DNA of 42,383 nt from a virus: positions 1-42,383 of the IMG/VR virus record IMGVR_UViG_3300034072_000964, one strand, 5' to 3'. Positions within the stretch are counted from its first letter, which is position 1, and the number at the start of each line of letters is the position of its first letter. Both the position numbers and the translations under genes were made by a program. Positions 5,237 to 42,383 of this stretch are shown one piece after another. The notes beneath the pieces were generated by a model. The model was not told the origin of the DNA and ran no database searches. It was given only the letters and a program-made list of their open reading frames with translations.

Positions 5237-5662
5237 TTAAGCAAAAGTTACATCCCCAGAGATTCTGAGCGTAAAGCTAGAATCAACTTTGGAGTCAACA
5301 GATCCGGAAACTGGAGCATTCATAACGTATGCTTTGAATGTTGCAGTTGAGGCATCCGAAAAAGTTACTTTGAAAGTTTTCAAAGCGCGGGATGCTTTAG
5401 CGGCGCGCAACGCGGCTTGGCCTGGGGCCGATGCATCTTTGACATAGGAAACATCAATGTTGAAGTTGCCGAAATCCTGCAAACCCATCAGCCATTCTTT
5501 AGCTGTTGATTTAAGATTGGTTTTATCAATCTCAGCGGCTTGGCCATCAAAGCCGTTAAACGCTGTTACCTCTTCGATTGACTGATAAACAGCTGGGGGG
5601 CCAACAGCCGTTTGAATGGCAATATCAAAGCCCTGGGCGGCTATAGCAACGGAATCTGGCAT
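5237..5662 (-). CDS. Major tail protein (TP901-1 / GTA g9-like)
   Basis: 141 aa. Canonical position between the tail terminator and the chaperones. The ..FNGFDGQAAEIDKTNLKS.. region is typical of this family as I recall it. Confidence 0.7.
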   Translation of the reverse strand: MPDSVAIAAQGFDIAIQTAVGPPAVYQSIEEVTAFNGFDGQAAEIDKTNLKSTAKEWLMGLQDFGNFNIDVSYVKDASAPGQAALRAAKASRALKTFKVTFSDASTATFKAYVMNAPVSGSVDSKVDSSFTLRISGDVTFA

Positions 5663-6515: not shown

Positions 6516-6839
6516 TTATCTGGCCTCTTTAGTTTGCGCGGTAAACCATAAAAATCCTTTGCGCTTTTCTGAATCATCAACAGCGCTGATATAATAAAAT
6601 CTATCGTTCCGTTTAACACGCCATTCAGAATCTATATCTGATCTGTAACGGATGCGGACTCTGATAATTTCATTGGCGTTTGTTCTGGCGGCTTCAAAAG
6701 ATTCAGATCCACGCTGAGTTAAAATCTCGGCCCATGTAAATGGTTTTGTTTCATCCCATGATTGCTGAAGTTCCCCGCTCTGATTTGTTTCAATCAGCGG
6801 TTGCAAATAAATTTTTTTATCTAAATTACCAGATTGCAT
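6516..6839 (-). CDS. Head-tail adaptor / head closure protein (SPP1 gp16-like)
   Basis: 107 aa. The ..EIIRVRIRYRSDIDSEWRV..FYYI.. pattern and the position upstream of the gp10-like gene support the call. Confidence 0.65.
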   Translation of the reverse strand: MQSGNLDKKIYLQPLIETNQSGELQQSWDETKPFTWAEILTQRGSESFEAARTNANEIIRVRIRYRSDIDSEWRVKRNDRFYYISAVDDSEKRKGFLWFTAQTKEAR

Positions 6840-7033
6840 TTTTCCGCCTTGCGCTCTTGAATTTTTGGAAGCGCTCTATTTGAAGTTGTCGCCCAGATGA
6901 AAGCCCAAAACCATCCTATCAGAGTCCAGCCAAAAAATAAATTGACAAAGAAAATTGATAAAGCGTTGTTATGCTTTCTAGCCAATGACAAGAAAAACGG
7001 GGCAAAATACCAAACTAAAAAAATAAATTCCAT
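6821..7033 (-). CDS. Superinfection-immunity (Imm) family small membrane protein
   Basis: 70 aa from ATG 7033, 1 nt after the upstream TAG at 7035-7037. PFFLSLARKHNNALSIFFVNLFFGWTLIGWFWAFIWA matches the A.R.H.N..aIf.Nl..GWT.iGW..A.iWA signature. Two predicted TM helices. Confidence 0.75.
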   Translation of the reverse strand: MEFIFLVWYFAPFFLSLARKHNNALSIFFVNLFFGWTLIGWFWAFIWATTSNRALPKIQERKAEKCNLVI

Positions 7034-7034
7034 T

Positions 7035-9284
7035 CTAAGCGCTCCATAAAAGCTGATTGCCAAGATAGACTTTAGAAACGGCCTGACTTCCAACATAAAT
7101 TGATGATGGCGAAACATTGCCAATCTTTAGCTGGGCCGGATCTGAAAAGATCCATCCATTGTTATTTCCATTATCATTTGCATGGCTCCCCGCGTACCAT
7201 TGCGCGCCGCCTGAAGCGTTTGAATATGAAATGTTGAAGTAATCCCCAACAATCATTCCTGATGCGCTGGAAAGCGTATGTTGAGCCGCCGTTATACTGC
7301 CAATAGTTATTGGGTTGCCAGCCGTTCCTTTTGTTGGAAACGGTATAACCATTGATGTTGTTGATCCGGCTGTAAATTTTACAGATGCATTTGGCTTTGG
7401 ATCAAATTTATTAAAAGAGTTACTTCCAACAAAATTTACATCCGCATTTCCGGCGGCTCCAGATATTTCAATATCATTGAACGCCATGCCACCGCCTGAA
7501 AATGTTTTTGCAACAGCGCTTGTATCTGTAATATTTATTTTTGATGTTGATTTTGTAAGAGTCAAATTAACAGCCGTTGCTGTATTCCAGATTGTCCCCG
7601 TTCCGGTTAGATTCAAATCTCCAGTTGGCATTGTAAAGGATCTGGAATTTGTAACTGAGCTTGTAAAATTCAAAACGCTCATATTCCCGCCAGCAATCAG
7701 ATTGCCGCCAGTTTGAACAAACCCAGCGGCGGATAAAGTATAATCAAAACCATTATGATCAAATGTACCGGATGCTATTGAGCTTCCAGCCGCCCTGTTA
7801 CTTGTAAAGTTATCCAGTAATTTTACCGTTCCCGAAAATGAATCAATATTCAGTTGCGGTTGGAAATTTTTCCCAGCGGTTGTAATAGTTTGAATCCCGC
7901 GCTTTCTCATTGTAAACAAACCGCCGCTTATCCCAACAATTGATGGCGCTGTATATGTTATATCTCCATAAACCTCAGTTGTATTTCCGCTTACAGATCC
8001 TTGATTTGTTGCATTATCAAAAAATATTGATCCGACTCTTGGAACATCCATTACCAATGTTTTATTAGCCGCGGGGAAAGACCCAGCCGCAACGCGCGCT
8101 GTATCCTGAGGCAAAGGAACGCGGCTTAAAGGTTGCCACATACTCGCATTGCTCCAGTTACCATTACCAAAATTCCATGTAAGAGTCGCTGGAGCTGTAA
8201 ATATTATTCCTGAATTTCCGCCACAATCCCCAGACTCGTAACCTGACAAATCCCAATTTGCGGAACCAACTCCGCTAATATCTCTGAAATCAGCGCGAGT
8301 AAATCCGGAAATATTTGATACGTTTATTGATCTTTGCGCGCCAATAGTGCTGGAAGCTATAAGCCCCCTTGCTGTTGAGCTAACATTTAGCGTTCCAATA
8401 GTTTGATTCTGAGTCAATATTGTTGAAGCGCCAAGAGTCGTTGTATTCAAATTATAAGTTCCAAATACGCAAGATAGGCCAATATTAACAACAGTACTGC
8501 CATTTTGATTCATTGTCGTCACATTCAATGTTCCGCCAATCGTCATTGTACCGCTGGAAAAATTAATTGTTCCAATCGTATTGTTTCCGTTAATCGCCAG
8601 CGTTCCGCCGCCTGTTGTTTTTTCTATAGTGCCAAATGTTAATCCGGCTCCGTTCAATGTTCCTGTTGTTGTTGTTCCAAAAAGGATCGTACTGGATGCG
8701 GCTGATAACGTAAAATTTGTTGTCGTTGTAACTGTCCAGGATCTTGATGTTCCGCCAAGGCTCCATATTGTTGAGCCTAAAGTTAAAGACCTTACAAGCG
8801 TTCCGCTTGTCGCAAATTGCCCAGAAACATTTTGGCCATTAGTATCAAGAGCGCCAGCCAATAAAGTAACCGTTGAATCAGTTGTTACAACAGAAAAAGA
8901 ATCCTGAAGAGTCCAGCCGCCGCCAACGCCATTAAAGGTTGTCGGCGGCGGTTGCTTTCCGGCCATAGTTATTGTTTTGCCGGATGATGTTGATGTAAAG
9001 GAAAGCCGCGCTGAATTGTTTGTTGAATAAGTCATTGCCGCTGAAAAAACCAAACTGCCAGCAATTTCAAGATAAGTATTTGTTGGATGGGAAAGCGTTC
9101 CAGTATATCCGGTGCAAGTTAAATCCCTGCAACGGTTGGGCGCTCCGGATGTTCCATTTATCGTTACATTTCCTGAGCTTGAATTTAAAACAACATCATC
9201 CGCGGCTGTTGGAACAACGCCGCCAATCCAAGTTGCGCCGCTTGTCCAAGATCCCCCAGCGGCTGATGCTGTAATGGTTGCCAT
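7035..9284 (-). CDS. Large Thr/Ser/Gly/Asn-rich structural protein, probable parallel beta-helix fibre or spike
   Basis: 749 aa. The N-terminus GGSWTSGATWIGGVVPTAADDVVLNSSSGNVTINGT resembles the start of G8/beta-helix domains. Degenerate short repeats run throughout. It lies inside the virion structural operon. Confidence 0.5.
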   Translation of the reverse strand: MATITASAAGGSWTSGATWIGGVVPTAADDVVLNSSSGNVTINGTSGAPNRCRDLTCTGYTGTLSHPTNTYLEIAGSLVFSAAMTYSTNNSARLSFTSTSSGKTITMAGKQPPPTTFNGVGGGWTLQDSFSVVTTDSTVTLLAGALDTNGQNVSGQFATSGTLVRSLTLGSTIWSLGGTSRSWTVTTTTNFTLSAASSTILFGTTTTGTLNGAGLTFGTIEKTTGGGTLAINGNNTIGTINFSSGTMTIGGTLNVTTMNQNGSTVVNIGLSCVFGTYNLNTTTLGASTILTQNQTIGTLNVSSTARGLIASSTIGAQRSINVSNISGFTRADFRDISGVGSANWDLSGYESGDCGGNSGIIFTAPATLTWNFGNGNWSNASMWQPLSRVPLPQDTARVAAGSFPAANKTLVMDVPRVGSIFFDNATNQGSVSGNTTEVYGDITYTAPSIVGISGGLFTMRKRGIQTITTAGKNFQPQLNIDSFSGTVKLLDNFTSNRAAGSSIASGTFDHNGFDYTLSAAGFVQTGGNLIAGGNMSVLNFTSSVTNSRSFTMPTGDLNLTGTGTIWNTATAVNLTLTKSTSKINITDTSAVAKTFSGGGMAFNDIEISGAAGNADVNFVGSNSFNKFDPKPNASVKFTAGSTTSMVIPFPTKGTAGNPITIGSITAAQHTLSSASGMIVGDYFNISYSNASGGAQWYAGSHANDNGNNNGWIFSDPAQLKIGNVSPSSIYVGSQAVSKVYLGNQLLWSA

Positions 9285-9286
9285 CT

Positions 9287-9514
9287 TTAAACCTCTTCAG
9301 GCGCATTCAGGCTTATAGTAAGATCATGTTCCGGCTGTACCATGTACCCAAAGCAAGATCCGGCATCAATCTCTTTTATAAAAACGCCATTAGAATATAA
9401 ATAATATTTCTTATTTTGGCTGTTATTCGTTATAGAGATCTGGTTTATATCTTCTATAGGCGGAATTTCTTCAACCGGAAAATCTTCAGCTGGAATTTCA
9501 TTTTCATCTGTCAT
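9287..9514 (-). CDS. Hypothetical acidic protein
   Basis: 75 aa, translationally coupled on both sides (4-nt overlap upstream, 2-nt gap downstream). Confidence 0.5.
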
Positions 9515-10029
9515 GGCGTTACAAAATAAACCGTTTGAGCATCTTTAGTTGTCAATGCGGCATATGCCGCGGCATTCAATGTTACTTCATTCAAAACTTT
9601 TGATGCGCCTGTAATTCCAGTTACATCAGAACGGATGAAAAGACTTGTATCAGCGGCGGGGCCAGTCGCTCCGGTTGCGCCAGTTGGCCCAGCTGGGCCT
9701 TGCGCTCCAGTATCCCCTTTGGGGCCTTGCGCGCCCGTTGCGCCAGTCGCGCCTGTATCGCCTTTAGGCCCCTGAGCGCCAGTTGCTCCAGTATCGCCCT
9801 TGGCTCCAGCTGGGCCAGCGATTCCTTGCGCTCCAGTTGCCCCTGTTGGGCCAGCTGGCCCTTGAATGCCTTGCGCGCCCTGAGCGCCTGTATCGCCCTT
9901 AATTCCTTGCGGCCCCGCGGGGCCAGCTATACCTGGGGGGCCTTGCTCAGCAACGCCAATTACATCAATCTGGATAGAGCCGCCAACCTCTATTGAATTT
10001 TGAGCTACTATAACATTTACTGTTGACAT
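9511..10029 (-). CDS. Collagen-like triple-helix repeat protein (fibre shaft)
   Basis: 172 aa with 32 uninterrupted G-X-Y triplets (aa 30-125), flanked by short non-repeat N- and C-terminal domains. Confidence 0.9.
9655..9942 (-). repeat. Collagen G-X-Y coding repeat, 32 triplets
   Basis: Runs from [21 protein letters not shown]... to ...GATGATGPA. The 9-nt periodic GGN CCN NNN units are visible in the DNA. Confidence 0.9.
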
Positions 10030-10368
10030 TTATTTTACCTCAACTGATGCGATTAAATACGGAATAACATCCGCCCCCGTATCCAAAAGCCATTTAAGGT
10101 TATAAAATCCCGCATCAATTTCTTCATCAGCTTCAAGCCGGAAATTTAATTGGCCGTTTGAACCGCCAACAGAAATTGAATTTGTTTCATCGAAATCATA
10201 AGAATTTGAGCAACATCCATTTGCGCCCGATTTCTCAAGGCTCAGCGCACTCTTGAATCCTGTAACATCATAAGGATTGCCATCAGGATCTTTCCAAGTG
10301 GTTTTAATTTCAAAAGTTGTTCCTTTTAAAATCAAAATTGTATCTGGATAAATTCCTGGATTATACAT
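10030..10368 (-). CDS. Small beta-rich (Ig-like?) structural protein
   Basis: 112 aa. FEIKTTWKDPDGNPYDVTGF...FYNLKWLL resembles Ig-like phage decoration or fibre domains. Abuts both neighbours with no gap. Confidence 0.45.
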   Translation of the reverse strand: MYNPGIYPDTILILKGTTFEIKTTWKDPDGNPYDVTGFKSALSLEKSGANGCCSNSYDFDETNSISVGGSNGQLNFRLEADEEIDAGFYNLKWLLDTGADVIPYLIASVEVK

Positions 10369-10653
10369 TTATGCCCCCAGATCGCGCCGCAATATATGAA
10401 GGCGTTTTTCAACCGTTTCATCAATATGATATTGGCCTTCAGTATTTTTATCTTCCCGATTTTCAAACCATCCGGCAACCATTTGACAAACTGAAATTTT
10501 TGCCAAATCATCATTGGGCATGGCATAGCCAAGAAATTTTGAAATGTATTTCTCAGCCGCGCTGATCATTGCATTCAAAATTGTATCTTGACTCGTATCA
10601 TCCGAGTCAAGTCTCAACCATTCTTTAACCATGCTCAATGATGTTACTGGCAT
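10369..10653 (-). CDS. Head-tail connector (gp6-like, Phage_connect_1)
   Basis: 94 aa. VKEWLRLDSDDTSQDTILNAMISAAEKYISKFLG is the typical N-terminal motif of gp6-like connectors. Confidence 0.65.
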   Translation of the reverse strand: MPVTSLSMVKEWLRLDSDDTSQDTILNAMISAAEKYISKFLGYAMPNDDLAKISVCQMVAGWFENREDKNTEGQYHIDETVEKRLHILRRDLGA

Positions 10654-10971: not shown

Positions 10972-12198
10972 TTAGGCAACAAGGCCCAGATCGCCTTTAA
11001 TGAAGGCTTCAGGACGGTAAACCGCCAGCGCAAGGCGCTCTTCAGCCAGGATTGTAACCAAGTTTTTAACAAAGTTATCCTGATCTTCAGTTGAAACCAG
11101 AACCGCGGCATCTTCCCGATCAAAAACTTGCGCGCCCATACCGAAAGAGCCAACAAGGAATTTATCGGTTGTCATTGCCTGGGTTGCGACAACTGGCAAG
11201 CCCCAAAGCGTTGGGGAAGCAACGCCTTTTGGATCGCCGATAATGTAACGGCCCTGAGTATCTTTCAATGTTTCCATTGCAGACCATTGAATCGGATTCA
11301 GGATCGTACCATCAGCCGGATATTCGGCCAGCATTGCCTGAAGCATAGCAAGGCGGATAATATCCAGGATGTTGGCAGTACCAACAATGCCGCCAACAGG
11401 CGCGCTGTAAGCTGTTGCCTGAGTATAGATCCCGTTCAGGTTTCCACCCGTTCCGGAACCCATCAAAAGCTGAAGCTCTTCAGCGTATTCCAGACCGTAT
11501 TTCAAACGGCCATCAATGTAAGATTCCATCATTGGCGCATCAGCCAAAATTTGTTTGGAAGCCTTGACATAGTGGGCGATTGTTACAACGCTGGAATTTT
11601 GCAAGCTAAACGCAATATCAGATTGCGCCTTTGCAGTACCTTCAGCGCCTTGAACCGCGGCCATGTTTTGAAAGCCAGTTTCCTGGACATATTCAATGGC
11701 GTTGGAATCAGTACGGCCTTTAGCGATCAAATCGCGGACGGTCATACGGCGCTGGCCTGGGGTAAGGAACGGGCTAACAATGCGATCATTCCGCACGTTT
11801 GCGCCGCCAGCTCCAGTTCCAGTTGTCGCGCTGGTAATGGTTGTAACGGCCTTTACGTTCATACCGTATTTGCCTTTGCCTTTTTGTTGAGTAAAGGATT
11901 TATATCCTTCATCTTCAATAAAGCGCTGGCCCAGAGATTTTTCGGCTTGATCTTCAGAACCGCCGCGGCGATTAAGTTTTTGCTCAAGCTCTTCAATGCG
12001 GGAAACGCCTTTTTTGGCATCTTCAGCAAGTTGGAGCATCAGTTCATTATGCTTTGTAAGCATATCATCAACTTCAGCTTTGGTTTTTTCGCTCATTTCC
12101 ACGCCTTTTTTAGACTCGGCAAGAGCTTTTTCGCCAGCCTCTTTGACTTGATCCGCGATCTTGTCCAGGCGTTCTTTTACTTCAACATCAACAGGCAT
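10972..12198 (-). CDS. Major capsid protein, HK97 fold, with N-terminal delta (scaffold) domain
   Basis: 408 aa. A coiled-coil N-terminal ~100 aa is followed by a typical HK97-family body. It follows the prohead protease. Confidence 0.9.
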   Translation of the reverse strand: MPVDVEVKERLDKIADQVKEAGEKALAESKKGVEMSEKTKAEVDDMLTKHNELMLQLAEDAKKGVSRIEELEQKLNRRGGSEDQAEKSLGQRFIEDEGYKSFTQQKGKGKYGMNVKAVTTITSATTGTGAGGANVRNDRIVSPFLTPGQRRMTVRDLIAKGRTDSNAIEYVQETGFQNMAAVQGAEGTAKAQSDIAFSLQNSSVVTIAHYVKASKQILADAPMMESYIDGRLKYGLEYAEELQLLMGSGTGGNLNGIYTQATAYSAPVGGIVGTANILDIIRLAMLQAMLAEYPADGTILNPIQWSAMETLKDTQGRYIIGDPKGVASPTLWGLPVVATQAMTTDKFLVGSFGMGAQVFDREDAAVLVSTEDQDNFVKNLVTILAEERLALAVYRPEAFIKGDLGLVA

Positions 12199-12212: not shown

Positions 12213-12923
12213 TTAAAAGGTTGGGAGTTTAAAATCATCCAAGGATTGAATGATTCGGTTTTTCGCATCTTCAGCCGCGGACTCGCTCCGCAACAAATAC
12301 TTCAACCCGTTGTTTGCGATTGCAACGGATTGAGTTTTTGAAAACCCTGACTCCCTCAGGAAATCTTCAAATTCTTTTAGGCTGGGAAGTTTTCCAGCGC
12401 TGATTTTGTTCTTTACGGCATCAATGCGCGCCGAGTCAAGCATTGGAAACGTGACTTGAGAAACTTCATAAAGATCAATATCAATTAATGTTCTGGTATA
12501 ATTCCAATCATCATCATCATCAATTTCAATAGAGTATTCCTTGACTCCATATCCAATTGATAGGCCAGTAACAGCGCCTTCCCGCATCAGCGCATAGGCT
12601 TCTTTTGATTTTTGGACTTCATCAATGAGCAAACGGCCCTTTACAAAAAGCCCTTTTTCATCTTCATAAATTTCATCATAGACTCCAATCGGTTCATCCC
12701 ATTTATGTTGCCAAAGAACGGGAAATTTGCGCTTTAAACCCTCTTGTTCTTTCAAAGTACGGGTAAAAGCGCCCTTTTGGACTATATCGCCGCCAAAATC
12801 CTCTTCCCCAAAAAGGGACGCATAACCCGTAAAAATACCCTTTTCATCAACCGATTTAACGGAAAATGAAAGATCTTTATGCTCTTTTTTAGGGGCCGCA
12901 ATGGTGTAATTTTTCTGATTCAT
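12213..12923 (-). CDS. Prohead maturation protease, HK97 family (S78/U35)
   Basis: 236 aa. GYASLFGEEDFGGDIVQKGAF...LWQHKWDEPIGV is typical. It lies between portal and capsid. Confidence 0.9.
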   Translation of the reverse strand: MNQKNYTIAAPKKEHKDLSFSVKSVDEKGIFTGYASLFGEEDFGGDIVQKGAFTRTLKEQEGLKRKFPVLWQHKWDEPIGVYDEIYEDEKGLFVKGRLLIDEVQKSKEAYALMREGAVTGLSIGYGVKEYSIEIDDDDDWNYTRTLIDIDLYEVSQVTFPMLDSARIDAVKNKISAGKLPSLKEFEDFLRESGFSKTQSVAIANNGLKYLLRSESAAEDAKNRIIQSLDDFKLPTF

Positions 12924-12938
12924 GGCGCTTTTACCTTA

Positions 12939-14249
12939 CTATACTTTCTCAGGATCATCAACATGGGGAATAGTCATATCTTTTATATTCAAAATCGTTT
13001 TCTGATCGCCGTTATTGGCTGGCGCTGGAGTTGTCGCGGTTCCGCGGGGAATCTTATCCAGATCCTTGAGATTTACAAGCGCCGATTGAACAGTAAGCTC
13101 TTCAGATCCCGCTTTGTAAGGCAAGTTTTCTTTGCGGCGAATTTCAGCGCGATCCATCCAGCCATTTTGGGATGCCGATGCATAAAGAGCGGCGCGGCCC
13201 GAAGAATCGGCCCTCAGGAACGCATCAATATTAAATTCACAGAATAAATCATCCTTTTGCTCAGATGGAATCAAAGAGCGCGCCATTTCTTGTTCAAGTG
13301 ATTTTATAATTGGATGAATCGTATAGGTTAAAAAGCCCAGATTTATTTGCTCGACTCCCGTTCCCCACATTGTCGTATTGGCAGAATGGCCAATCAATAC
13401 AGGCGGGACTCCAAACCAGCGGCAAACCTCTTCAATTGAGAAAGAGCGGGATGCAATCAGCTCAGCATCTTCAGGCGTTAATCCCAGCGCCTCAAATGTC
13501 ATACCGCCTTCTAAAACCAGCGTTCCGCCATTCTTTGTTAAATTTCCAAATTGAGCGGCAATATTATCTTTAAAAAGCTGGCGTTGCTCATTTGTCAAAG
13601 TTTTTTCAACTTTCAAAATCCCCGTTTTTTGCATTCCGCGGGAATAGATTTTTGAAGTTGTTGATTCCTGATCTAACGAAATACCAAAACTTTGATTGGC
13701 ATACGAAATGACGGAAAGACCAGTACGGCCATTGATCGTAAACCCCTTATGATGAAAAATTTCATCTTCAGTGTATTCATTCCGGCCCAACCGATCCTGA
13801 TAGATGTAAGTTACAGATCCATCCTTGTTTTCTCGCAAGCTCATTAGGGCCGGATGCAAAAGCTCAAGAGAAACAAGGGCGCGATTTTTGCCAGAGCCGC
13901 GGAAAGTTTTCAGGGCGTATGCATTCCCCCAAAGAAGGCGGCAAGCTATGAAGGCGCAAAAAAATGTAAATGCGGTCATGTCCGCATTTGGGGAACGCCG
14001 TAAAATTTTATAAAGAGGATTATCCCGCTCAAGGATTTTATCGCCATATGTATCCAGAGAAAAAACGCCGCATGGAAGCGCGGCGATACTTTGAGAGATC
14101 AAACGGACGCAAGCGAAAACCGCGGAAATTGTAAGGGCCGTTTCTGTATTAACTGGCCTTGTACAATCATCGCCGCGGCCAAAAATCTTTCCGCTCTTAT
14201 CCGTTAATTTTACTCTTTGGCTTATCCAATTTGTGAGTCCGAAAATCAA
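12939..14249 (-). CDS. Portal protein, HK97 family
   Basis: 436 aa. ..ALTISAVFACVRLISQSIAALP.. is the conserved portal N-terminal block. TTG start at 14249 with AGGA upstream, and no in-frame ATG nearby. Confidence 0.9.
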   Translation of the reverse strand: MIFGLTNWISQRVKLTDKSGKIFGRGDDCTRPVNTETALTISAVFACVRLISQSIAALPCGVFSLDTYGDKILERDNPLYKILRRSPNADMTAFTFFCAFIACRLLWGNAYALKTFRGSGKNRALVSLELLHPALMSLRENKDGSVTYIYQDRLGRNEYTEDEIFHHKGFTINGRTGLSVISYANQSFGISLDQESTTSKIYSRGMQKTGILKVEKTLTNEQRQLFKDNIAAQFGNLTKNGGTLVLEGGMTFEALGLTPEDAELIASRSFSIEEVCRWFGVPPVLIGHSANTTMWGTGVEQINLGFLTYTIHPIIKSLEQEMARSLIPSEQKDDLFCEFNIDAFLRADSSGRAALYASASQNGWMDRAEIRRKENLPYKAGSEELTVQSALVNLKDLDKIPRGTATTPAPANNGDQKTILNIKDMTIPHVDDPEKV

Positions 14250-14361: not shown

Positions 14362-14598
14362 TTAAGCGGCGGAATCAGCTTCTGTAATGTCCAGATAGTA
14401 TTCCTTGCCTTCAGCAAATTTGCCTTTTACAGCATCATTATCAACCGTAATTTGCAAAGATCCGTTTGGCGTTGCTTTCGCAAAAGATTCATTCTCTTCA
14501 GTTCCGCCCAGAACGGCTGAGAATGTTACTTGTTCCGATGTTTCGCCCAGCTGAACAACTGATTGGCAACGGAATTTGGCGCGGGTTACAGATTTCAT
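14362..14598 (-). CDS. Hypothetical small protein between terL and portal
   Basis: 78 aa (MKSVTRAKFRCQSVVQLGE...GKEYYLDITEA). Followed by a hairpin with a T run. Confidence 0.6.
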   Translation of the reverse strand: MKSVTRAKFRCQSVVQLGETSEQVTFSAVLGGTEENESFAKATPNGSLQITVDNDAVKGKFAEGKEYYLDITEADSAA

Positions 14599-14629: not shown

Positions 14630-16180
14630 TCAGCAAACTATAGGCGAATTTAAAAAGCCGTCAAGGTTATCATCCGGCTCTGGCGGCTTCTCAGCAACAA
14701 ACTCAGAAATGGCCAGCGCAACAGCTCCATCAATCCGGCCTGTTGATTTTTTCTTATTCAATTTTCTGTTATCCGTTGCATCCGTTTCAACTGATGAATT
14801 GGCAACGCACATTGTTAAAACAGGATGGCCCCCATGCCTGTAAGATCCATTCAGTAATTTCTTTTCCATGCCTTCGATGGCAACGGTCATATCTTTGAAT
14901 CCTTGTCCGACTTCAACAAGGTTTATATTAAAATCAATTTTATCCAGCTCTTTTTTCAACAGCGCTATGCGCCATCTATCGTATCCCATAGCGACAATAT
15001 CAACATCCTTGAGGATCTGGGCCATGCGTAAAGCGACAAACTCATAATCAATCGTATGCCCTGGGCAAGCCTCAATATATCCTTGCTGATACCAAACATC
15101 ATATGGCGCTCTATCCCGCTTTGCGCGCTCAATTAAATTCTCTAATGGAGTCCAGAAATAAGAATATACCGGAAAAGAATTTGTTTCCGGATGATAACCC
15201 TGCAAAACCATAGCCGTTAAATCCGTTTTACCGGAAAGATCCAATCCGCCTGTTATGTTGATGCATTCAGAAATAGGCGGCGGATTTGCCCCTGATTTTT
15301 TCCAGATCTCTTGCGTTACAAACGGGCTGGAAGTTGTAACCCGCATATTTAGATTTAAGTTTTTAAAAGTATTTGTAAAAGTTGGCATCCGATTTGCTTT
15401 ATCGGCTTGCTTTCTCATATCGGCTTCAGATCTGAATATTCCCAGCGCTGGATTTGCTTTCTTCCATTGCTTTTCATCCATTACATCCGCATCAGCATCA
15501 GCGCAATGAACATGGCAAACCATCTTTTCCGGTTTATTCGTTTCATAATCATCAATCAAAATGCTCAACAGATCGCCATTGTTCTGGGCCTGAGTCGAAA
15601 TATAAAACAGCAAAGCATTTTTATATGCTCCCTGGGCCGTTGTAATCGCATCAATAAAATCCGATTGCGGCCCTTTGACTTGCCCAACTTCATCCAGAAT
15701 GGCAACAATCGGGCTTTTACCATGCGCGGTTTTGGCATCAGCTGATGTTGCCTGATATTCAACATTCATTTTCAAGCCAATAAGTTTTTTCCCCGATGGA
15801 ATAATTTTAATTCTGTCCCTGAGCTTTGGAGATAGATTTATTGTTTTGCTGGCAAGGTTAAAGACTTCAGCGGCTTGCTCTTTGCTCATAGCGCCAGAAA
15901 CGATACGGGAATTTTCAACCGCTTCAGGCCCAACCAAATGGGCCAATACGATAAAAGCAATCAAAGCGGTTTTTGCATTTTTCCGCGCAATCGAAAGAAT
16001 GGCTGTATCTGTAATGAACGGGTTATCATATACATCAATGATAAAATCTTTTTGAAACTGGAGCAATACAACAGGCTGGCCCATCAGATCGCCTTCAGGA
16101 ACAACGCAAAAACGCTCTATAAATGCAATGACGCGCTGGCCGCGGGTTAGTGGCTTAGGTTGTTGATTCTTCATTATCAT
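14630..16180 (-). CDS. terL: Terminase large subunit (Terminase_1-like)
   Basis: 516 aa. LLQFQKDFI... and the deviant Walker A in SIARKNAKTALIAF are present, with a nuclease-type C-terminal half. It lies upstream of the portal. Confidence 0.9.
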   Translation of the reverse strand: MIMKNQQPKPLTRGQRVIAFIERFCVVPEGDLMGQPVVLLQFQKDFIIDVYDNPFITDTAILSIARKNAKTALIAFIVLAHLVGPEAVENSRIVSGAMSKEQAAEVFNLASKTINLSPKLRDRIKIIPSGKKLIGLKMNVEYQATSADAKTAHGKSPIVAILDEVGQVKGPQSDFIDAITTAQGAYKNALLFYISTQAQNNGDLLSILIDDYETNKPEKMVCHVHCADADADVMDEKQWKKANPALGIFRSEADMRKQADKANRMPTFTNTFKNLNLNMRVTTSSPFVTQEIWKKSGANPPPISECINITGGLDLSGKTDLTAMVLQGYHPETNSFPVYSYFWTPLENLIERAKRDRAPYDVWYQQGYIEACPGHTIDYEFVALRMAQILKDVDIVAMGYDRWRIALLKKELDKIDFNINLVEVGQGFKDMTVAIEGMEKKLLNGSYRHGGHPVLTMCVANSSVETDATDNRKLNKKKSTGRIDGAVALAISEFVAEKPPEPDDNLDGFLNSPIVC

Positions 16181-16940
16181 CTATAAAGCATCCACAACCG
16201 CCGAAATCATATTTTTCATCCGGCTCAAGCTCCATCTTTTCAAATTGTTCCAGCGTAATGTAATGCTGTTTTTTGTTTATTGTTTTTCTCAGAAACGGAT
16301 GATCCAGATCCGGATTTTCTTCAACAAGTTTTTTCTGTTGCTGTTTATGCCATTCAAAACGCTCAGGGAAATTTTCCCTTAATTTTGCAAATTGAGCCAA
16401 TCCAGCGCGGACGCAAAAACCGCCGCAATTGTTATGAGCGAAACCCATCTTATATAATCTAGGCAATTCAATGTTGTATTGCTTTAAAAGATCAAGCCTT
16501 TGGCCATGAGTCATAAAGCTCCCTCTTTCGCAAAGAGGCGCTATAACTTTATAATCTGGATTATTTTTTTGCGCTCTGGGAAGCCTATGCTCTTCCTCAA
16601 GATCAATTCCCAAAACAAGAATAGGCGGCGATTCAAAAGTTTTTAGATATTTTTCCATCTGGACTCGCTTCAGGAAAATTGAGCATTGAGCTTTGCGCGT
16701 ATTGCCTTGATATTTTACATCCCTGAAAACTTCCCACGGATTCCGGCCATCAGTTAATTTTACAAGTGGTAAATTTAACTTGGCCGCGCTTTCGTCTAAA
16801 AATCTGTAAAGATCTTCATCTTCAATAAGTGTATCGCAAAATGCCAGCTGTATATCAGCTGGATCAACTTGCTGTTTTAAAATATGAGCCGCGGCAAAAG
16901 ATCCAAGACCACCGGAATAAGAAACAACATATTTCATCAA
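16155..16940 (-). CDS. PP-loop ATP pyrophosphatase / PAPS-reductase-like protein
   Basis: 261 aa. The N-terminal VVSYSGGLGS is an SGGxDS-type PP-loop. The C-terminal half has the Cys pairs NNCGGFC and GGCGCF. It overlaps terS by 4 nt and terL by 26 nt. Confidence 0.65.
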   Translation of the reverse strand: MMKYVVSYSGGLGSFAAAHILKQQVDPADIQLAFCDTLIEDEDLYRFLDESAAKLNLPLVKLTDGRNPWEVFRDVKYQGNTRKAQCSIFLKRVQMEKYLKTFESPPILVLGIDLEEEHRLPRAQKNNPDYKVIAPLCERGSFMTHGQRLDLLKQYNIELPRLYKMGFAHNNCGGFCVRAGLAQFAKLRENFPERFEWHKQQQKKLVEENPDLDHPFLRKTINKKQHYITLEQFEKMELEPDEKYDFGGCGCFIDDNEESTT

Positions 16941-37159: not shown

Positions 37160-37666
37160 TTAAGATGCCTTCATTAATTCCCGATAAATGAAAACGCCTG
37201 AAGAAACGGATGCGGCCCAGGCTTGTAATTCCTGTATAGCAGTTTTTACCTGATTGCCAAAGTCTAAAGCAACAACAGTTAGGCCCAGCGCCGAAACCCC
37301 GACAGCCGCTGTTAATGGGGCTGAGGGGCTGGCAATCTTATTGGCCCTATTCCCGCGCCATGCCTTGAGCGCCGATATATCCGCATCCTGATCTGTATTC
37401 TTTTGTTCCGCGGCGCTCATGCGCTGGGATAAGCTCCCCGCGGTTAATTGCAAAGATGTAATACTGGCTTCATTCGCCAGCGCCCGATCCGTCAAAGAAT
37501 TGATTGAGGAATTTACTCCTAAAACGGCCGCATTGTTTTGTTCAAGTGTTGCAACGCGGGAAGCCAGCGTTCCCATTTTGGCTTCATCCGTATCAGCCCT
37601 TGACTCCAAAGTCGTTAAGCGCCCCGCCATTGTTGTATTGCGGGTATTCAGAACGCTCATATCCAT
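37160..37666 (-). CDS. Coiled-coil fibre-associated protein
   Basis: 168 aa from ATG 37666, the first ATG after the upstream stop at 37686. RLTTLESR..RVATLEQN..SITSLQL heptads. Confidence 0.5.
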   Translation of the reverse strand: MDMSVLNTRNTTMAGRLTTLESRADTDEAKMGTLASRVATLEQNNAAVLGVNSSINSLTDRALANEASITSLQLTAGSLSQRMSAAEQKNTDQDADISALKAWRGNRANKIASPSAPLTAAVGVSALGLTVVALDFGNQVKTAIQELQAWAASVSSGVFIYRELMKAS

Positions 37667-37685
37667 CTGGGTTAGGATTCTGATA

Positions 37686-38444
37686 TTACTTGGCATCTGG
37701 CTTTGTACCCCCTTCAGAAACGGCATAAGAAGCCGGATCTGGCTTTGGATAATCTTTCTTGATGCTGGCAACTTCAGCGTTGGCCTCAGCGATCAATGAA
37801 TCCTTTTCAGGCCCATCAGCAAGCCTATTTGCCTCAGCAACAAGCGGATCAACATGAGCTTCATAAAAGCCGCGGCGAATTGTCCGGACGCGCTCAAGAT
37901 CGCGGCTATACGCGCCAGCATTCCATTCTTTTTCCCGCGCCAGCGTTTCAGCAATTTCATCTTCATCCATTGGCTGATCGCCGTATTTTTTGTACTCTTT
38001 ATCAGCTTTGCCAAATTCTACTTTGGCGCGCTTCAGGGCATCAGCCCTTTCATCAAGCGCCGATTGATATTTTTCTTCAGCTTGTCGCGCCGCGGCTTGG
38101 CCAGCGCGCTCCAGATCATCCTGAAGGACTCGCTCAGCGTTATCTATGGCCTTATCATAGATCATCTGGGCGGCTTCCAATCCAGCTTTCATTTCATCTT
38201 TTGCATCATCATCAGCTGTATCAAAAGCCAGCTGAGCCGCATCAAGCGCGGCCTTGCTTTCTGTGTAAGTAATATTGCGCTTTTCAGTTGCAAGCTGAAT
38301 TTGCTCAACAGGAACATCAGCTGGATAATCTTCTTTTCTGATTTCAAGATTTTCAAGATCTGAAATAACCTGTTGTAAAAGTGTATGACGGTTTAAAAGA
38401 TCAACCGGAATTGCAATATGTTTTATAAATTGGCGCTCAGTCAT
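37686..38444 (-). CDS. Acidic helical protein downstream of the tail fibre (function unknown)
   Basis: 252 aa, Ala/Glu/Asp/Lys-rich. Confidence 0.55.
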   Translation of the reverse strand: MTERQFIKHIAIPVDLLNRHTLLQQVISDLENLEIRKEDYPADVPVEQIQLATEKRNITYTESKAALDAAQLAFDTADDDAKDEMKAGLEAAQMIYDKAIDNAERVLQDDLERAGQAAARQAEEKYQSALDERADALKRAKVEFGKADKEYKKYGDQPMDEDEIAETLAREKEWNAGAYSRDLERVRTIRRGFYEAHVDPLVAEANRLADGPEKDSLIAEANAEVASIKKDYPKPDPASYAVSEGGTKPDAK

Positions 38445-38446
38445 TT

Positions 38447-39574
38447 TTATTGTCCTTTGATTCCGAGAATATACGCTTCCCCTGTAATTGTATTTGCAGA
38501 TGGATAAAGTTTAAGGGCATTAAACGCATTCATATCTGAAACATGATTTGCGCCGCCATCATAATAAAATGCATCAGTTATAGTATGATGCCATGAATAA
38601 ACAGAAAGCGCCGCATATCTGTTGGTATTAGACCAGTTATAAAGGCGCGCAAATCCAGCGCAACATTGATTTGCGCCGCCGCCGCCTGGATAATATGCAA
38701 GATTGCAATAAGCGTTTCCGGCTGAAAACCCGCCAGCATTCCCGATTGAAGTTGATCCAGCTGAGCGGCCATAATTCCTTGAAAGCAAAGAGCTGGTATA
38801 AGCCGCGCCAGCATTTTTAGACCATTCACAGCGAATATCGGCTGGAGATCCTGGGAATGTAAAATTGAAATTCAATTCATAATTATCATATCCGGTAATA
38901 CCGGATAGCGAGAGAATGGATGCGCCCGTTACAGCCGCATATGCAATTGGAACGCCATTCCCGCCAATCTTATTCAGTCTTACTTTTTTAGGGCCGCTGG
39001 CGGATGCGTCATAAGTTAAAACAAAATCATTGGCAGTATCTGGGGCCGTATCCTCAGTTAAAAGATTCAAAACCTTCAACAGATCTGTAATGAGCATTTT
39101 ATTATTTGCGCCGGATGATTCCGAAACATCATTGATCAAAACATAATCGCCAAGAGCAATAGAGGCTTCAGCGGCCATGCCAGCAAAATCAACTGAGCCT
39201 GATGCGCTGTTAAGAGAAACAAGTTTTGCATCAATCTGATTGATGGCGCTTTGGACATTGGAGCCAGTTGTATATGTCCGGCCCGTTGGATCGTATGTAA
39301 TGCCGGATGCGGCTGTTACCAATCCTGAAGGCGTGAAAATATTTGTTGTTGTATTTACCGTTCCAATCGGAACATCAGCTGAGCCTGTAAAGAAATTTAC
39401 GACTCGCGGATTAGTTGTATTGTTTACCCAGATCATTCCCGCCTGAGCGTATGAAGGACGGGATGGGCCGGAATGGGATGAATGAAGCGCATCCCGCCAA
39501 GGCTCAATTTTGCCATTGATAAGGGCCGTTCCAGATATGGGAGATTCTATATTTCCTAAATCAAATTGGCTCAT
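38447..39574 (-). CDS. Putative tail fibre / receptor-binding protein
   Basis: 375 aa, Gly/Ser/Thr/Asn-rich, overlapping the J-like gene end by 4 nt. The N-terminus ..WRDALHSSHSGPSRPSYAQAGMIWVN.. resembles N-termini of alphaproteobacterial phage fibres as I recall them. Confidence 0.5.
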   Translation of the reverse strand: MSQFDLGNIESPISGTALINGKIEPWRDALHSSHSGPSRPSYAQAGMIWVNNTTNPRVVNFFTGSADVPIGTVNTTTNIFTPSGLVTAASGITYDPTGRTYTTGSNVQSAINQIDAKLVSLNSASGSVDFAGMAAEASIALGDYVLINDVSESSGANNKMLITDLLKVLNLLTEDTAPDTANDFVLTYDASASGPKKVRLNKIGGNGVPIAYAAVTGASILSLSGITGYDNYELNFNFTFPGSPADIRCEWSKNAGAAYTSSLLSRNYGRSAGSTSIGNAGGFSAGNAYCNLAYYPGGGGANQCCAGFARLYNWSNTNRYAALSVYSWHHTITDAFYYDGGANHVSDMNAFNALKLYPSANTITGEAYILGIKGQ

Positions 39575-42383
39575 GTTCTTTCTCTTCCGTATCCTGCAAT
39601 AATAATATCAGCCGTTCTGGAAACATAGGTTAGGCTGATCCGATTATAAACTTTTACTGTAAAAGTGCTAGGGCTTTTTTCTGTATATTCCAGTTCATCC
39701 GCCGCATCCCCATCTTGAATTGTTGTTGAAATAGCTGGGATTTCTTTAAACGCCGGAACAAAAGTTAATGCCAATCCCTCAACAGGTATTGTTACATCTT
39801 CGATTTTTTCAATTCTATCCGGCATATCAATGGAAACCGCAAGGCCGGAAACCTTAGGGGATATTCCGTATTGAAGGCTCGTAAGTTTTATCCTGAATTG
39901 AATGGCCCAGAAAGAGATATTCCCAGCGCGAAACTCTGCCCAATCGCTCCAATTATTTAGGGCCGGATCATCCGTTGTTACCCTATATTGAAGTTGTACT
40001 TCCCATGCATCAGATCCAATACCGAAAACATCTGACAAAGAAAAAATATCATCCTCAGATAAAAGATCATTTCCGCCAGCGCCGAAAACATCCGCCATTG
40101 CAAAAATATCAGCAACGGAAAAAATATTATTTATAAAAACGCCATTAGCAATAACAGATGCGCCAACAAAAGATGTAAAGAGCGCGCCCAGATCCAAAGA
40201 GTTTGCAAAATAGTAATACCCTTCAGCCGTATCAACATCATTCAAAACGACTCCGCCATCAACATAAGTTGTATTGGTTTTTGCTCCAGTAAAATCTGGG
40301 GCTTCATCCAAAACGGCAATGGCGTTTAAAAGATTCCCAGGATCATAAGTTATAACCGCCGTTGCATTTGCGGATTCATTCCCAGACAAATCAACAAATT
40401 TAATCAGATAAGTACCTGGCAGAAACGGAGTCGAGAATCTGTTTTCAGTTACCAGATCTTTCAACAGCTGGGCTGTATCCCATGTTGCGCCAATAAATTG
40501 AGAGCTATAACGGACTCTTGCGCCCCTTATATCAATTGCCTGAGAAGGATTCCATTCAAAGATGGCTGTATTGTCGCTTATATCAACAACAAAGCCTGTA
40601 ACATCATCCGGCAATCCTGATGCGCCAATGAATTTATATCCATTGATTTCCAGTGGAAGAGATTGCATAGAGCCGCCAGCGCGATAATAACGGATATGAA
40701 TATCATAAAGCGTATCATCATCAAGACCAGTTAATATGATACGCTCAGGAGTCGACTCTAAAACATTTGCATTATTCAGTTTATCAGTTCCTGAAACCCT
40801 GACTTTTACAGATGTTAAAATATTTTCTTCATTATTATTTTTTAAAGTGATAATGGCGCGGGGCGTGAAAGATCCATCAGAGTTTCTGAGCATAACCGAC
40901 TCATCAGATTGAATCGTTATCAGCTCAGGCGGTACTGGCCTTTTGAAAACAAGCGGCTCAGTAATGCGGCTATTCCAAACTGGAATAGGGGAATTTTCAG
41001 CCGTGAAAATTTCAGGCGCATAATCAATGGCTGTAAGTTTGGCGCTCAGATCATCTTGCGGCTCAATACGGGTTAGAATAACATCGACTTCCCCGCCAGC
41101 CTCAACAATATATCCAAGATCGCCGATAAGCGGCAAAATACTGTTATCATCAATACTTAGCGGCCTATCAAATGGCGTTGTAAAAACAAAAGTTTTCGTT
41201 TCGCCAACAGATGTATTCAGCTGTTTATACATTTGGCTCCCATCAGATAATCTAAGCCTCATATAAAATGTTGATGCGCTGGGGATTGCAACCGTATCAT
41301 CAAAAGTAATGCTGGTAATCTTGCCAGAGCCATCAACAGCGAAAGATTTAATCCGGCCATCACCAACTGCAATGAGCGGAATATCATGGGCCAGCTTTAC
41401 ACGATCGCCACGAATGGCAACAAGGTTTTCAAAATCCATTACAACTGAATGAGACTCAGGGCGCAAAACAATTGCGGCGAAATGGCGCTTGCCTGTTTTG
41501 AAAGCAAAATCAGAATTGGTACAATGCATCAGTTCCAAAACTTCAAAATCTGTTGCGGGAATCAGGCCATTAGATCCATCCTCATTATATCCATCCCTGT
41601 AAACAATTCTTTCGTCTTGTTGAAATCCTTTTTCTTCATTTCTGAATTGGACTCTCAAGGCATGGGGAAGATCCGCATAAATCAATTCAGCGGAATAATC
41701 GCGGCTGTTGCGCGGGGTTATGATTTGAACAATGTCATTTTTTATTCTATCAATCGCAACCGATCTTTTCCCATCAACAATAGCGGGGCTTGCGCTTCCC
41801 GCGCTGGCTATATCCTGCAAAACATCCTCAAGGGAAGTTTCATAATCTATAACCCTGTTATAAGAATATCCCTGTTGTTCGCAATGGATATGCCAATCCT
41901 CAAGGCCAGCAATATCAATTTTTGAATCAGCCAGTGGCTTTGCATTGGCCTCCCCCTGCAAAGCGTAACGATATATGGAAGCCGGATTTGAAGTAACTCT
42001 TTCTTCCCATAGGCCAGTATCGCTGTTGTAATCCGGAATTACCAAAGAGAAAATTCCATTCAACTGATCAAGAGCGCCGTTCAATTGATCTGTTGCTTTT
42101 ATGCGGATGGCAGTACCGTTTAAATTTGCCAGCTTAACAGGCGCGCCGTATTTTACGCTCCTGATCGCTGTAAAATAAACATCATTCAAAAATTGATCTG
42201 AATCGTTATCTAACGATAAGCGGCGGATTCTGAAATCATATTTCCCGTTTGTTGGGAAAACGACTCTGACAGAACGGCGCAAGGCTTCAGTTTGACTTGC
42301 AGTAATGTTTAACTGATTAACCGTTATAGATCCGCCGCTTATATGAAGCGAATTAGCGCCCGTAACAGATGGCGCAAAATCAG
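39571..42383 (-). CDS. Host-specificity / central tail-tip protein J-like, 3' part (same gene as 1..1442)
   Basis: The frame is open to the window end. The M of track ORF 39571..42282 is an internal TTG (Leu). Reconstructed gene: 1442..1 plus 42256..39571, or 4128 nt and 1375 aa. Size and position after the M/L/K-like genes fit gpJ / GTA g15. Confidence 0.75.
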   Translation of the reverse strand, partial: DFAPSVTGANSLHISGGSITVNQLNITASQTEALRRSVRVVFPTNGKYDFRIRRLSLDNDSDQFLNDVYFTAIRSVKYGAPVKLANLNGTAIRIKATDQLNGALDQLNGIFSLVIPDYNSDTGLWEERVTSNPASIYRYALQGEANAKPLADSKIDIAGLEDWHIHCEQQGYSYNRVIDYETSLEDVLQDIASAGSASPAIVDGKRSVAIDRIKNDIVQIITPRNSRDYSAELIYADLPHALRVQFRNEEKGFQQDERIVYRDGYNEDGSNGLIPATDFEVLELMHCTNSDFAFKTGKRHFAAIVLRPESHSVVMDFENLVAIRGDRVKLAHDIPLIAVGDGRIKSFAVDGSGKITSITFDDTVAIPSASTFYMRLRLSDGSQMYKQLNTSVGETKTFVFTTPFDRPLSIDDNSILPLIGDLGYIVEAGGEVDVILTRIEPQDDLSAKLTAIDYAPEIFTAENSPIPVWNSRITEPLVFKRPVPPELITIQSDESVMLRNSDGSFTPRAIITLKNNNEENILTSVKVRVSGTDKLNNANVLESTPERIILTGLDDDTLYDIHIRYYRAGGSMQSLPLEINGYKFIGASGLPDDVTGFVVDISDNTAIFEWNPSQAIDIRGARVRYSSQFIGATWDTAQLLKDLVTENRFSTPFLPGTYLIKFVDLSGNESANATAVITYDPGNLLNAIAVLDEAPDFTGAKTNTTYVDGGVVLNDVDTAEGYYYFANSLDLGALFTSFVGASVIANGVFINNIFSVADIFAMADVFGAGGNDLLSEDDIFSLSDVFGIGSDAWEVQLQYRVTTDDPALNNWSDWAEFRAGNISFWAIQFRIKLTSLQYGISPKVSGLAVSIDMPDRIEKIEDVTIPVEGLALTFVPAFKEIPAISTTIQDGDAADELEYTEKSPSTFTVKVYNRISLTYVSRTADIIIAGYGRERT
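42257..42383. repeat. Direct terminal repeat, exact copy of 1..127
   Basis: Identical base for base to 1-127. Confidence 0.97.

Follow-up and report, generated by a model that had tools for sequence, protein, structure and literature searches.

A predicted accessory fibre cassette with an LtfC-like socket between the connector and adaptor genes of an HK97-like siphophage

We analysed the IMG/VR virus record IMGVR_UViG_3300034072_000964 (positions 1 to 42,383; hereafter the window, meaning the whole stretch of 42,383 nucleotides, nt) and in it a four-gene cassette at 7035-10368 on the minus strand, which lies between the genes for the gp6-like head-tail connector (Ad1) and the head closure or head-tail adaptor protein (Hc1). 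We consider it highly probable that this cassette encodes a virion fibre built on a socket of the LtfC type, LtfC being the fibre collar protein of phage DT57C. With a slight preference over other placements, we further propose that the proteins form an accessory collar-and-whisker adhesion apparatus that is assembled with the head-tail connector and is located at the neck.

The initial annotation of this DNA, made from the letters alone, had described four tightly coupled genes in 3.3 kb between connector and adaptor and suggested an additional fibre cassette, with a collar whisker system or a glycan-binding appendage among the candidates. The four open reading frames, of 112, 172, 75 and 749 amino acids (aa), and their close coupling (successive junctions of 0 nt, 0 nt, a 4-nt overlap and a 2-nt gap) were borne out, as was the insertion itself. 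However, the interval between Ad1 and Hc1 measured 3.53 kb, and it held a fifth gene, encoding 70 aa, that had been missed. The suggested class of function gained support from the LtfC-family socket, the plugged collagen stalk and the beta-helix tip described below. The parts of the interval and its boundaries are as follows.

10369-10653, minus strand: Ad1, gp6-like head-tail connector, 94 aa (PF05135, 1.2e-12; phrog_40, 4e-17); upstream boundary of the cassette
10030-10368, minus strand: predicted collar or fibre socket, LtfC/p132-like immunoglobulin (Ig)-like beta-sandwich, 112 aa (phrog_1084, 1.3e-5)
9511-10029, minus strand: second cassette gene, whole gene of the 172-aa stalk protein
9943-10029, minus strand: N-terminal beta-strand plug of the stalk protein, aa 1-29, alternating hydrophobic strands ending in QGPPG
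9655-9942, minus strand: collagen stalk, aa 30-125, 32 uninterrupted G-X-Y triplets, about 27 nm (PF01391, 4.6e-17)
9514-9654, minus strand: C-terminal joint domain of the stalk protein, aa 126-172 (PF24243 'Phage_tail_C', 1.4e-7, over the last ~25 residues)
9287-9514, minus strand: acidic small protein, 75 aa, proposed adaptor or assembly partner of the distal protein
7035-9284, minus strand: distal protein, 749 aa, predicted tandem double beta-helix with a 33-aa C-terminal extension
6821-7033, minus strand: Imm_superinfect-like membrane protein, 70 aa, two transmembrane segments (PF14373, 2.3e-13; phrog_1039, 1.4e-21)
6516-6839, minus strand: Hc1, head closure or head-tail adaptor, 107 aa (PF05521, 5e-16; phrog_25, 7e-17); downstream boundary of the cassette

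Socket, stalk and tip proteins

Profile comparison indicates that the 112-aa protein is a homologue of the fibre socket known as p132 in phage T5 and LtfC in phage DT57C. When used alone, its only PHROG match was phrog_1084 (unknown function; 1.3e-5), and word-indexed searches with the single protein or with a three-sequence profile returned only three clade members. Exhaustive HMMER searches reached a wider family of 110-130-aa proteins, from which we built an alignment of 23 sequences (A3) that included the window protein. Every member of A3 matched phrog_1084, 14 of the 23 matched phrog_3304 ('L-shaped tail fiber protein assembly') and 11 of the 23 matched the Pfam family PF23926, the LtfC-like beta-sandwich (best 2e-8); these three labels, together with phrog_15373, are those of the LtfC/p132 fibre-collar family. 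Comparison of A3 with T5 p132 in hhalign gave a probability of 86.7% and an E value of 4.4e-6 over the full length (107 aligned columns, identity ~17%). For this comparison the 140-aa p132 was rebuilt by hand from the frameshifted T5.135/T5.136 (NC_005859, 8056-8480); the DT57C paper also mentions a frameshift that splits p132 in the reference record.

Searched against PDB sequences, the A3 profile matched 26dk chain M best (7e-16), followed by DT57C LtfC (8hqz_Q, 0.021) and T5 p132 (7qg9_R, 0.1). The sequence of 26dk chain M was traced to Pseudomonas phage KPP25/phiR18; we found no paper on this entry, and the plug protein that would be the partner of this chain is absent from the PDB. An AlphaFold2 model of the 112-aa protein, which the initial annotation had called Ig-like, was indeed a compact, eight-strand, Ig-like beta-sandwich (predicted local distance difference test score, pLDDT, 88). 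Foldseek searches with this model returned Ig-like domains and, at template-modelling (TM) scores of 0.60-0.66, three baseplate chains of phage 80alpha. The T5 structural paper links p132 structurally to the BppU fold, and one of the 23 members of A3 matched BppU_N (PF10651) weakly (E 0.097). Members of the collar family were present in phages of Streptomyces, Synechococcus, Pelagibacter, Acidovorax, Halomonas, Pseudomonas and Limnohabitans. In T5 and DT57C, the only two phages for which this is known, p132 or LtfC forms a dodecameric collar with which the N-termini of the fibre protein are intertwined by strand augmentation.

The 172-aa protein, described earlier as collagen-like, contains the uninterrupted G-X-Y repeat listed above, and the GC content of the window rises to 0.495 in this stretch because of these repeats. 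Its many matches to PHROG tail-fibre families were driven by the collagen repeats. The layout of the plug that precedes them was found in the gene right after the socket gene in the window and in six other genomes, namely the related IMG/VR locus L010 and the phages Limnohabitans DC31, Halomonas phiHAP-1, Acidovorax AP1, Streptomyces BillNye and Pseudomonas phiR18. All six of these other plugs were examined; each has between one and several short hydrophobic strands ahead of Q/R-G-P-P/A/R-G, and several add collagen triplets. T5 has the same gene order, with p132 followed by ltf, and the pairing of socket and plug was found across siphophage, myophage and podophage genomes. This recurrence is the strongest evidence that the first two cassette genes work together, and by analogy the window plug may correspond to the N-terminus of LtfA or pb1 that intertwines with the collar. 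A C-terminus of the PF24243 type, like that of the 172-aa protein, was also seen in the 130-aa stalk protein of a second related locus, L011.

The 75-aa protein is acidic, as previously noted (15 D/E against 3 K/R), and had no Pfam or PHROG match. Its C-terminal 35 aa matched a 64-aa protein at the equivalent position in contig L006 (pairwise BLASTP, 8e-6, in a single comparison), and the two have in common a GSCFG[YW] motif (GSCFGW in L006) and a terminal P-E/D-E/D-V (PDDV in L006). The match was not significant by phmmer in a pooled search, so that the pairwise BLASTP result and the equivalent position are what suggest homology between these two proteins.

The 749-aa protein is rich in Thr, Gly, Ser and Asn (14.7%, 12.8%, 12.3% and 8.7%, respectively), in agreement with its first description. 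It contains an internal duplication, with homology between its two halves (about aa 1-365 and 366-716), and an AlphaFold2 model made from a 62-sequence alignment was an all-beta solenoid (pLDDT 86, predicted TM score 0.78). A resemblance of its N-terminus to G8 and beta-helix domains had been suggested; the model upheld the beta-helix, but the G8 domain was rejected because Pfam gave no match to it at E <= 0.1. The protein had no match at all in Pfam at that threshold, nor in PHROGs or among PDB sequences. At least 1300 homologues were found, all of which are unnamed or called 'hypothetical protein', and among the matches listed 119 of 120 had no Pfam domain on record. Fold matches in the PDB were to beta-helical autotransporter passengers, adhesins, polysaccharide lyases of family 6 and tailspikes, none of them significant (best E 0.019), and matches in BFVD were confined to uncharacterised 'uncultured Caudovirales' proteins with TM scores no higher than 0.73. 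By analogy with beta-helical adhesins and with the beta-helix modules of lactococcal neck passage structures, a surface polysaccharide is the most likely target of the beta-helix, while the predicted fold neither supports nor excludes an enzymatic activity.

The last ~30 residues of the 749-aa protein (…IYVGSQAVSKVYLGNQLLWSA; aa 717-749, 7038-7136, minus strand) appear to be an optional extension. Only one of the 120 homologues listed (P0017) has it, and in L011 it forms the N-terminus of a separate 61-aa protein (7777-7962) encoded between the stalk and the distal spike. The extension may be a docking motif.

We inspected 14 genomic contexts of the 749-aa family individually, and the statements on synteny made here refer to these. 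In the siphophage contigs L007 and L097 the family gene follows those for the tape measure, Dit and Tal, which is a tail-fibre position, and in the podophage contigs L001, L006, L100 and L101 it lies near the portal and capsid genes. A gene ending in PF24243 precedes the family gene in the window, L006 and L101; the two adjoin directly in L101, and one small gene stands between them in the window and in L006. The closest homologue of the 749-aa protein (41% identity), in L005, is followed by a socket-family gene, and in phage DC31 a 749-aa homologue is encoded about 3 kb from the socket-plug pair. The 749-aa family behaves as an exchangeable distal module.

Genes of the MptE-like (DUF115-type) kind were observed beside fibre genes in L011 (10716-11339), L006 (5082-6752) and L101 (634-2304), and L006 additionally carries sugar-nucleotide and glycosyltransferase genes beside its fibre genes. 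These are hints that the fibres may be glycosylated.

The connector-adaptor junction in related genomes

We compared 80 IMG/VR loci with a related capsid gene (L010-L089), in which Ad1 and Hc1 were located by iterated hidden Markov models. Both joining genes were present in 66 loci, and in 62 of these they overlapped or were at most ~170 bp apart, so the premise of the initial annotation that the connector gene is normally followed directly by the adaptor gene was correct. The two genes also abut in Mesorhizobium phage vB_MseS-P1, a characterised relative. Four of the 66 loci had 349-727 bp between Ad1 and Hc1, which is room for one small gene, and the only multi-kb insert among the related loci was in L010 (4.2 kb).

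L010 and L011 are the two closest relatives. In L010, whose capsid protein is 78% identical to that of the window, Ad1 is followed by a 124-aa socket homologue (31% identical to the 112-aa protein), a 1229-aa protein, a 68-aa Imm homologue and Hc1. Ad1 and Hc1 themselves are still 61-76% identical between the window and L010 (76% for Hc1), though the distal proteins differ. In L011 (capsid 73% identical) the order is Ad1, a 120-aa socket homologue, Hc1, proteins of 130, 61, 951 and 207 aa, and the gp10-like gene. The other 78 related loci contained no homologue of the socket gene. This gene content shows a socket gene conserved at the Ad1-Hc1 junction while everything distal to it has been replaced, and the 112-aa gene should be seen as a socket that a small clade has conserved rather than as part of a freshly inserted unit. 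L010 and L011 retain the socket with different distal proteins; these differences, and the distant relatives that lack the cassette, indicate a lineage-specific accessory and not the ordinary conserved order of the lineage. There were no signs of recent insertion; apart from the collagen repeat the GC content was ordinary, and promoter-like and terminator-like sites in the cassette region and at its flanks did not exceed the shuffled expectation. Plug and distal part are fused in a single 1229-aa chain in L010 and split differently in L011, and such fusion and splitting of parts is the modular behaviour expected of receptor-binding appendages. A 'pectate-lyase-like' reading of the 1229-aa protein was dropped because it had no Pfam support.

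The length of Ad1 varied with the presence of the collar gene. In the three genomes that have this gene Ad1 is minimal, at 93-94 aa, whereas in most relatives without it Ad1 has 152-240 aa and contains a central insertion, the exceptions being L045 (122 aa) and L068 (114 aa). The collar may therefore replace the insertion domain of Ad1, or need its space. We also considered whether the 112-aa protein could be a C-terminal domain split off from Ad1. This was ruled out, as the relatives' proteins owe their extra length to a central insertion, and the window Ad1 can be aligned over its whole length with the termini that those longer versions conserve.

Three relatives carry a different gene, encoding 136-161 aa, between Ad1 and Hc1 (L028, 4498-4908; L039, 11525-11989; L043, 9047-9532), the products of which start MVDLTVTATNV... 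or ...DLVITAANV.... Because of these genes the junction looks like a place where this phage group tolerates accessory genes of the head or neck.

The small accessory gene in these relatives, and the location of the cassette downstream of the capsid gene in the head module, would also fit capsid fibres, in which collagen trimers sit on the centres of hexamers or pentons and the 112-aa protein serves as a Hoc-like decoration. Parallels exist in T4 Hoc, which is an Ig-like decoration protein, in SPP1 gp12, a collagen-like protein that binds the capsid, and in the head spikes of the Rhodobacter capsulatus gene transfer agent (RcGTA). However, the 112-aa family shows homology to a ring-forming fibre socket rather than to any known decoration protein, the pairing of plug and QGPPG occurs also in phages that have these genes among their tail genes, and the G-X-Y repeats are the only resemblance to gp12. 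We regard capsid fibres as improbable.

Assembly and placement of the proposed apparatus

In the model that we slightly favour, the 112-aa Ig-like protein would oligomerise into a ring, probably 12-fold and then of the same symmetry as the Ad1 dodecamer, its proposed seat. Beta-strands from about the first 29 residues of the 172-aa protein would insert into the sheets of the collar and augment them, as LtfA does in LtfC, and past the QGPPG three chains would wind into a collagen triple helix of ~27 nm that projects outward. The C-terminal PF24243 knob would be the joint for the distal 749-aa double beta-helix, either through the 75-aa protein or with its help, and the beta-helix would bind a surface glycan or another component of the envelope, resulting in reversible primary adsorption. 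This adsorption would come on top of that mediated by the lambda-like J tip and by the candidate fibres whose genes follow J. We infer the stoichiometry of the ring, the joint between stalk and beta-helix, the ligand and the location at the neck, the last of these from gene position only. Several observations favour the neck: all three members of the clade, despite their divergence, have the socket gene at the Ad1-Hc1 junction; Streptomyces phage BillNye has it next after its capsid gene; other relatives have a different accessory gene at this junction; the three genomes with the socket have the minimal Ad1; and a 12-mer ring would agree with Ad1 in symmetry.

Several observations weigh against this model. 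As to the socket, the window protein alone had no Pfam match at E <= 0.1, its homology to LtfC and p132 is transitive, by way of the family profile, and p132 and LtfC were not among the best 50 of ~2000 fold matches, which were generic Ig domains. As to the tip, contact between the stalk and the 749-aa protein is a proposal from gene synteny, at least two further types of gene partner the 749-aa family on its upstream side, one member of this family (in L003) lies among giant non-phage-like genes, and no ligand or catalytic site could be assigned to the 749-aa protein. As to placement, the solved collars of the family, in T5 and DT57C, are all at the tail tip and none is at the neck; the socket gene lies among baseplate or tail-fibre genes in phiHAP-1, AP1 and T4-like cyanophages; and no equivalent of T5 p140 was seen beside the cassette in Pfam and PHROG scans, although no systematic search for tube paralogues was made.

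The points on placement bear on an alternative in which the same proteins form a collar round the distal tail tube with lateral tail fibres, and in which a mobile fibre module merely happened to land among the neck genes. The solved LtfC and p132 collars surround a tube-like ring, genes of the family adjoin baseplate or tail-fibre genes in several phages, and fibre genes often lie elsewhere than the genes for the site at which their products attach, all of which is consistent with this alternative. However, the socket gene has kept its place at the Ad1-Hc1 junction in three diverged genomes while its fibre partners were swapped or moved, and Streptomyces phages have the socket gene in the head module. 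Additionally, the scans that showed no p140-like tube-ring gene beside the cassette count here against the tail tip, and this phage has a lambda-like tip (M/L/K/J), for which candidate fibres are encoded after J. We therefore consider a tail-tip location unlikely.

A further alternative is that the interval is a block of non-virion cargo (morons), with secreted or surface proteins that alter the host encoded in the late operon. The 70-aa Imm_superinfect protein, an undoubted moron, lies inside the interval, and the L003 homologue among giant genes would agree with such a role for the 749-aa protein. However, we recognised no evident signal peptide in the four N-termini, which were read by eye and not with a predictor, and the cassette genes are in tight translational coupling with structural genes. 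Furthermore, the family links lead to fibre-anchoring and fibre proteins, and most of the homologues of the 749-aa protein that we inspected lie within phage structural modules, making cargo a very improbable explanation of the four genes. The 70-aa Imm-like gene itself is probably a separate, non-structural moron that is not part of the fibre. Its ATG is 1 nt past the stop codon of the 749-aa gene, it overlaps Hc1 by 19 nt, and its copy in L010 (68 aa) is at the same site and 61% identical. A further 13 related loci have Imm homologues as well, apparently in the tail module and at ~3-5 kb downstream from the capsid gene.

The collar-and-whisker apparatus proposed here can be compared with four kinds of known system. 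It resembles the fibres of T5 (p132 and pb1) and DT57C (LtfC and LtfA), with which it shares a small, single-domain Ig-like collar protein of the same sequence family, the order of collar gene and then fibre gene, a fibre protein that starts with short beta-strands before the trimerisation region, and, as proposed here from the genes alone, a role as an accessory and non-essential fibre of primary adsorption. It differs in that its shaft would be a collagen triple helix where theirs is an alpha-helical coiled coil. Unlike in T5, moreover, the fibre is split into three polypeptides, a gene for a p140-like inner ring was not seen beside the cassette (no systematic search having been made), and the collar is probably on the neck, because its gene and those of the fibre are found at the Ad1-Hc1 junction and not among the tail-tip genes.

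The neck passage structure (NPS) of lactococcal phages (936 and P335 phages, TP901-1) is a non-essential connector collar with trimeric fibres and exchangeable carbohydrate-binding tips, some of which are beta-helices, and its collar domain has the BppU_N fold. Like the NPS, the window system would have a collar at the connector with fibres, a placement proposed here from gene position; its distal modules are mixed and matched among close relatives; and its tip is a predicted beta-helix with putative carbohydrate binding. It differs in being encoded by four genes and in having a collagen shaft, whereas the NPS is a single chain of 500-900 aa whose shaft is a coiled coil. The hosts of NPS phages are Gram-positive, whereas the host here is most likely Gram-negative or cyanobacterial, to judge from the relatives of the phage, and the window family had no significant BppU_N match.

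T4 fibritin (wac) resembles the predicted apparatus as a trimeric, accessory neck fibre that is encoded beside neck genes, but its sequence and fold are unrelated to those of the window proteins. Fibritin consists of a coiled coil and a foldon and is not an adhesin; its role is that of chaperone and sensor of the long tail fibres. Lastly, the parallel beta-solenoid predicted for the 749-aa protein is the architecture of tailspikes (P22, Sf6, HK620, CBA120 TSP1) and of autotransporters (Hbp, EspP, Ag43), which were its top fold matches in the PDB but from both of which it differs in being a tandem duplication and in the absence of any significant match (best E 0.019, TM ~0.15). It also has no match to the Pfam Beta_helix or pectate-lyase families and no identifiable catalytic residues.

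What is new in the reading presented here is the combination of an LtfC-type socket in the neck module of an HK97-like siphophage with a collagen stalk and an uncharacterised, predicted double-beta-helix tip. If the collar is on the connector, this would be an HK97-like neck collar-whisker system made of separate parts and not of a single NPS-like chain. The 2023 structural paper on T5 regarded p132/p140 as a landmark of T5-like phages only. Given the range of phages named above in which the family occurs, this view does not hold for p132-like proteins, which appear to be part of a module that is widespread and can be recognised by its partner motif. More tentatively, and with doubts that we find weightier than the support, we suggest that the p132/LtfC Ig ring and the plug with QGPPG are a portable docking system that crosses morphotypes and was moved here onto the Ad1 dodecamer to carry neck whiskers tipped with double-beta-helix adhesins of the 749-aa family. 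If true, such a system could be mounted on any 6-fold or 12-fold ring, such as those of the T5 tail tip, the baseplate region of myophages and the podophage tail, and this would contradict the published landmark view. Because accessory fibres determine adsorption rate and host range, a system of socket, plug, stalk and tip would be useful for reading host specificity from metagenomes and for engineering. The double-beta-helix family, with at least 1300 proteins, deserves attention as a recurrent candidate fibre tip in siphophages and podophages that has neither a Pfam or PHROG model nor a solved structure.

Late gene order of the genome

The window is a complete phage genome; an exact direct repeat of 127 bp at its ends (1-127 and 42257-42383) marks it as a circular assembly of 42,256 unique bp. 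The late genes are on the minus strand and run from terminase to a lambda-like M/L/K/J tip. Besides those of the cassette, they include the following.

14630-16180, minus strand: large terminase
12939-14249, minus strand: portal
12213-12923, minus strand: protease
10972-12198, minus strand: HK97-type capsid protein, followed by a 70-aa protein and then by Ad1
After Hc1, in order: gp10-like protein (Ne1), tail terminator, major tail protein (5237-5662), chaperones, tape measure and the M/L/K/J tip

A gene for a 261-aa protein with a 3'-phosphoadenosine-5'-phosphosulfate (PAPS) reductase domain (16155-16940, minus strand) lies directly upstream of the large terminase gene and overlaps it, at the place where a small terminase would be expected. 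A 78-aa gene without assignment (14362-14598, minus strand) lies between terminase and portal. The J-like gene, which encodes a lambda-J-like central fibre of ~1390 aa, is split over the ends of the window (about 1-1430 and 39571-42383, minus strand). The set of genes at 37160-39574 (minus strand), previously called a second and conventional fibre set, does lie after J as described, although its products matched no Pfam or PHROG family above threshold and are putative fibre proteins. One of these products, of 375 aa, has a fibre-like N-terminus, and the other two, of 252 and 203 aa, are coiled-coil-like.

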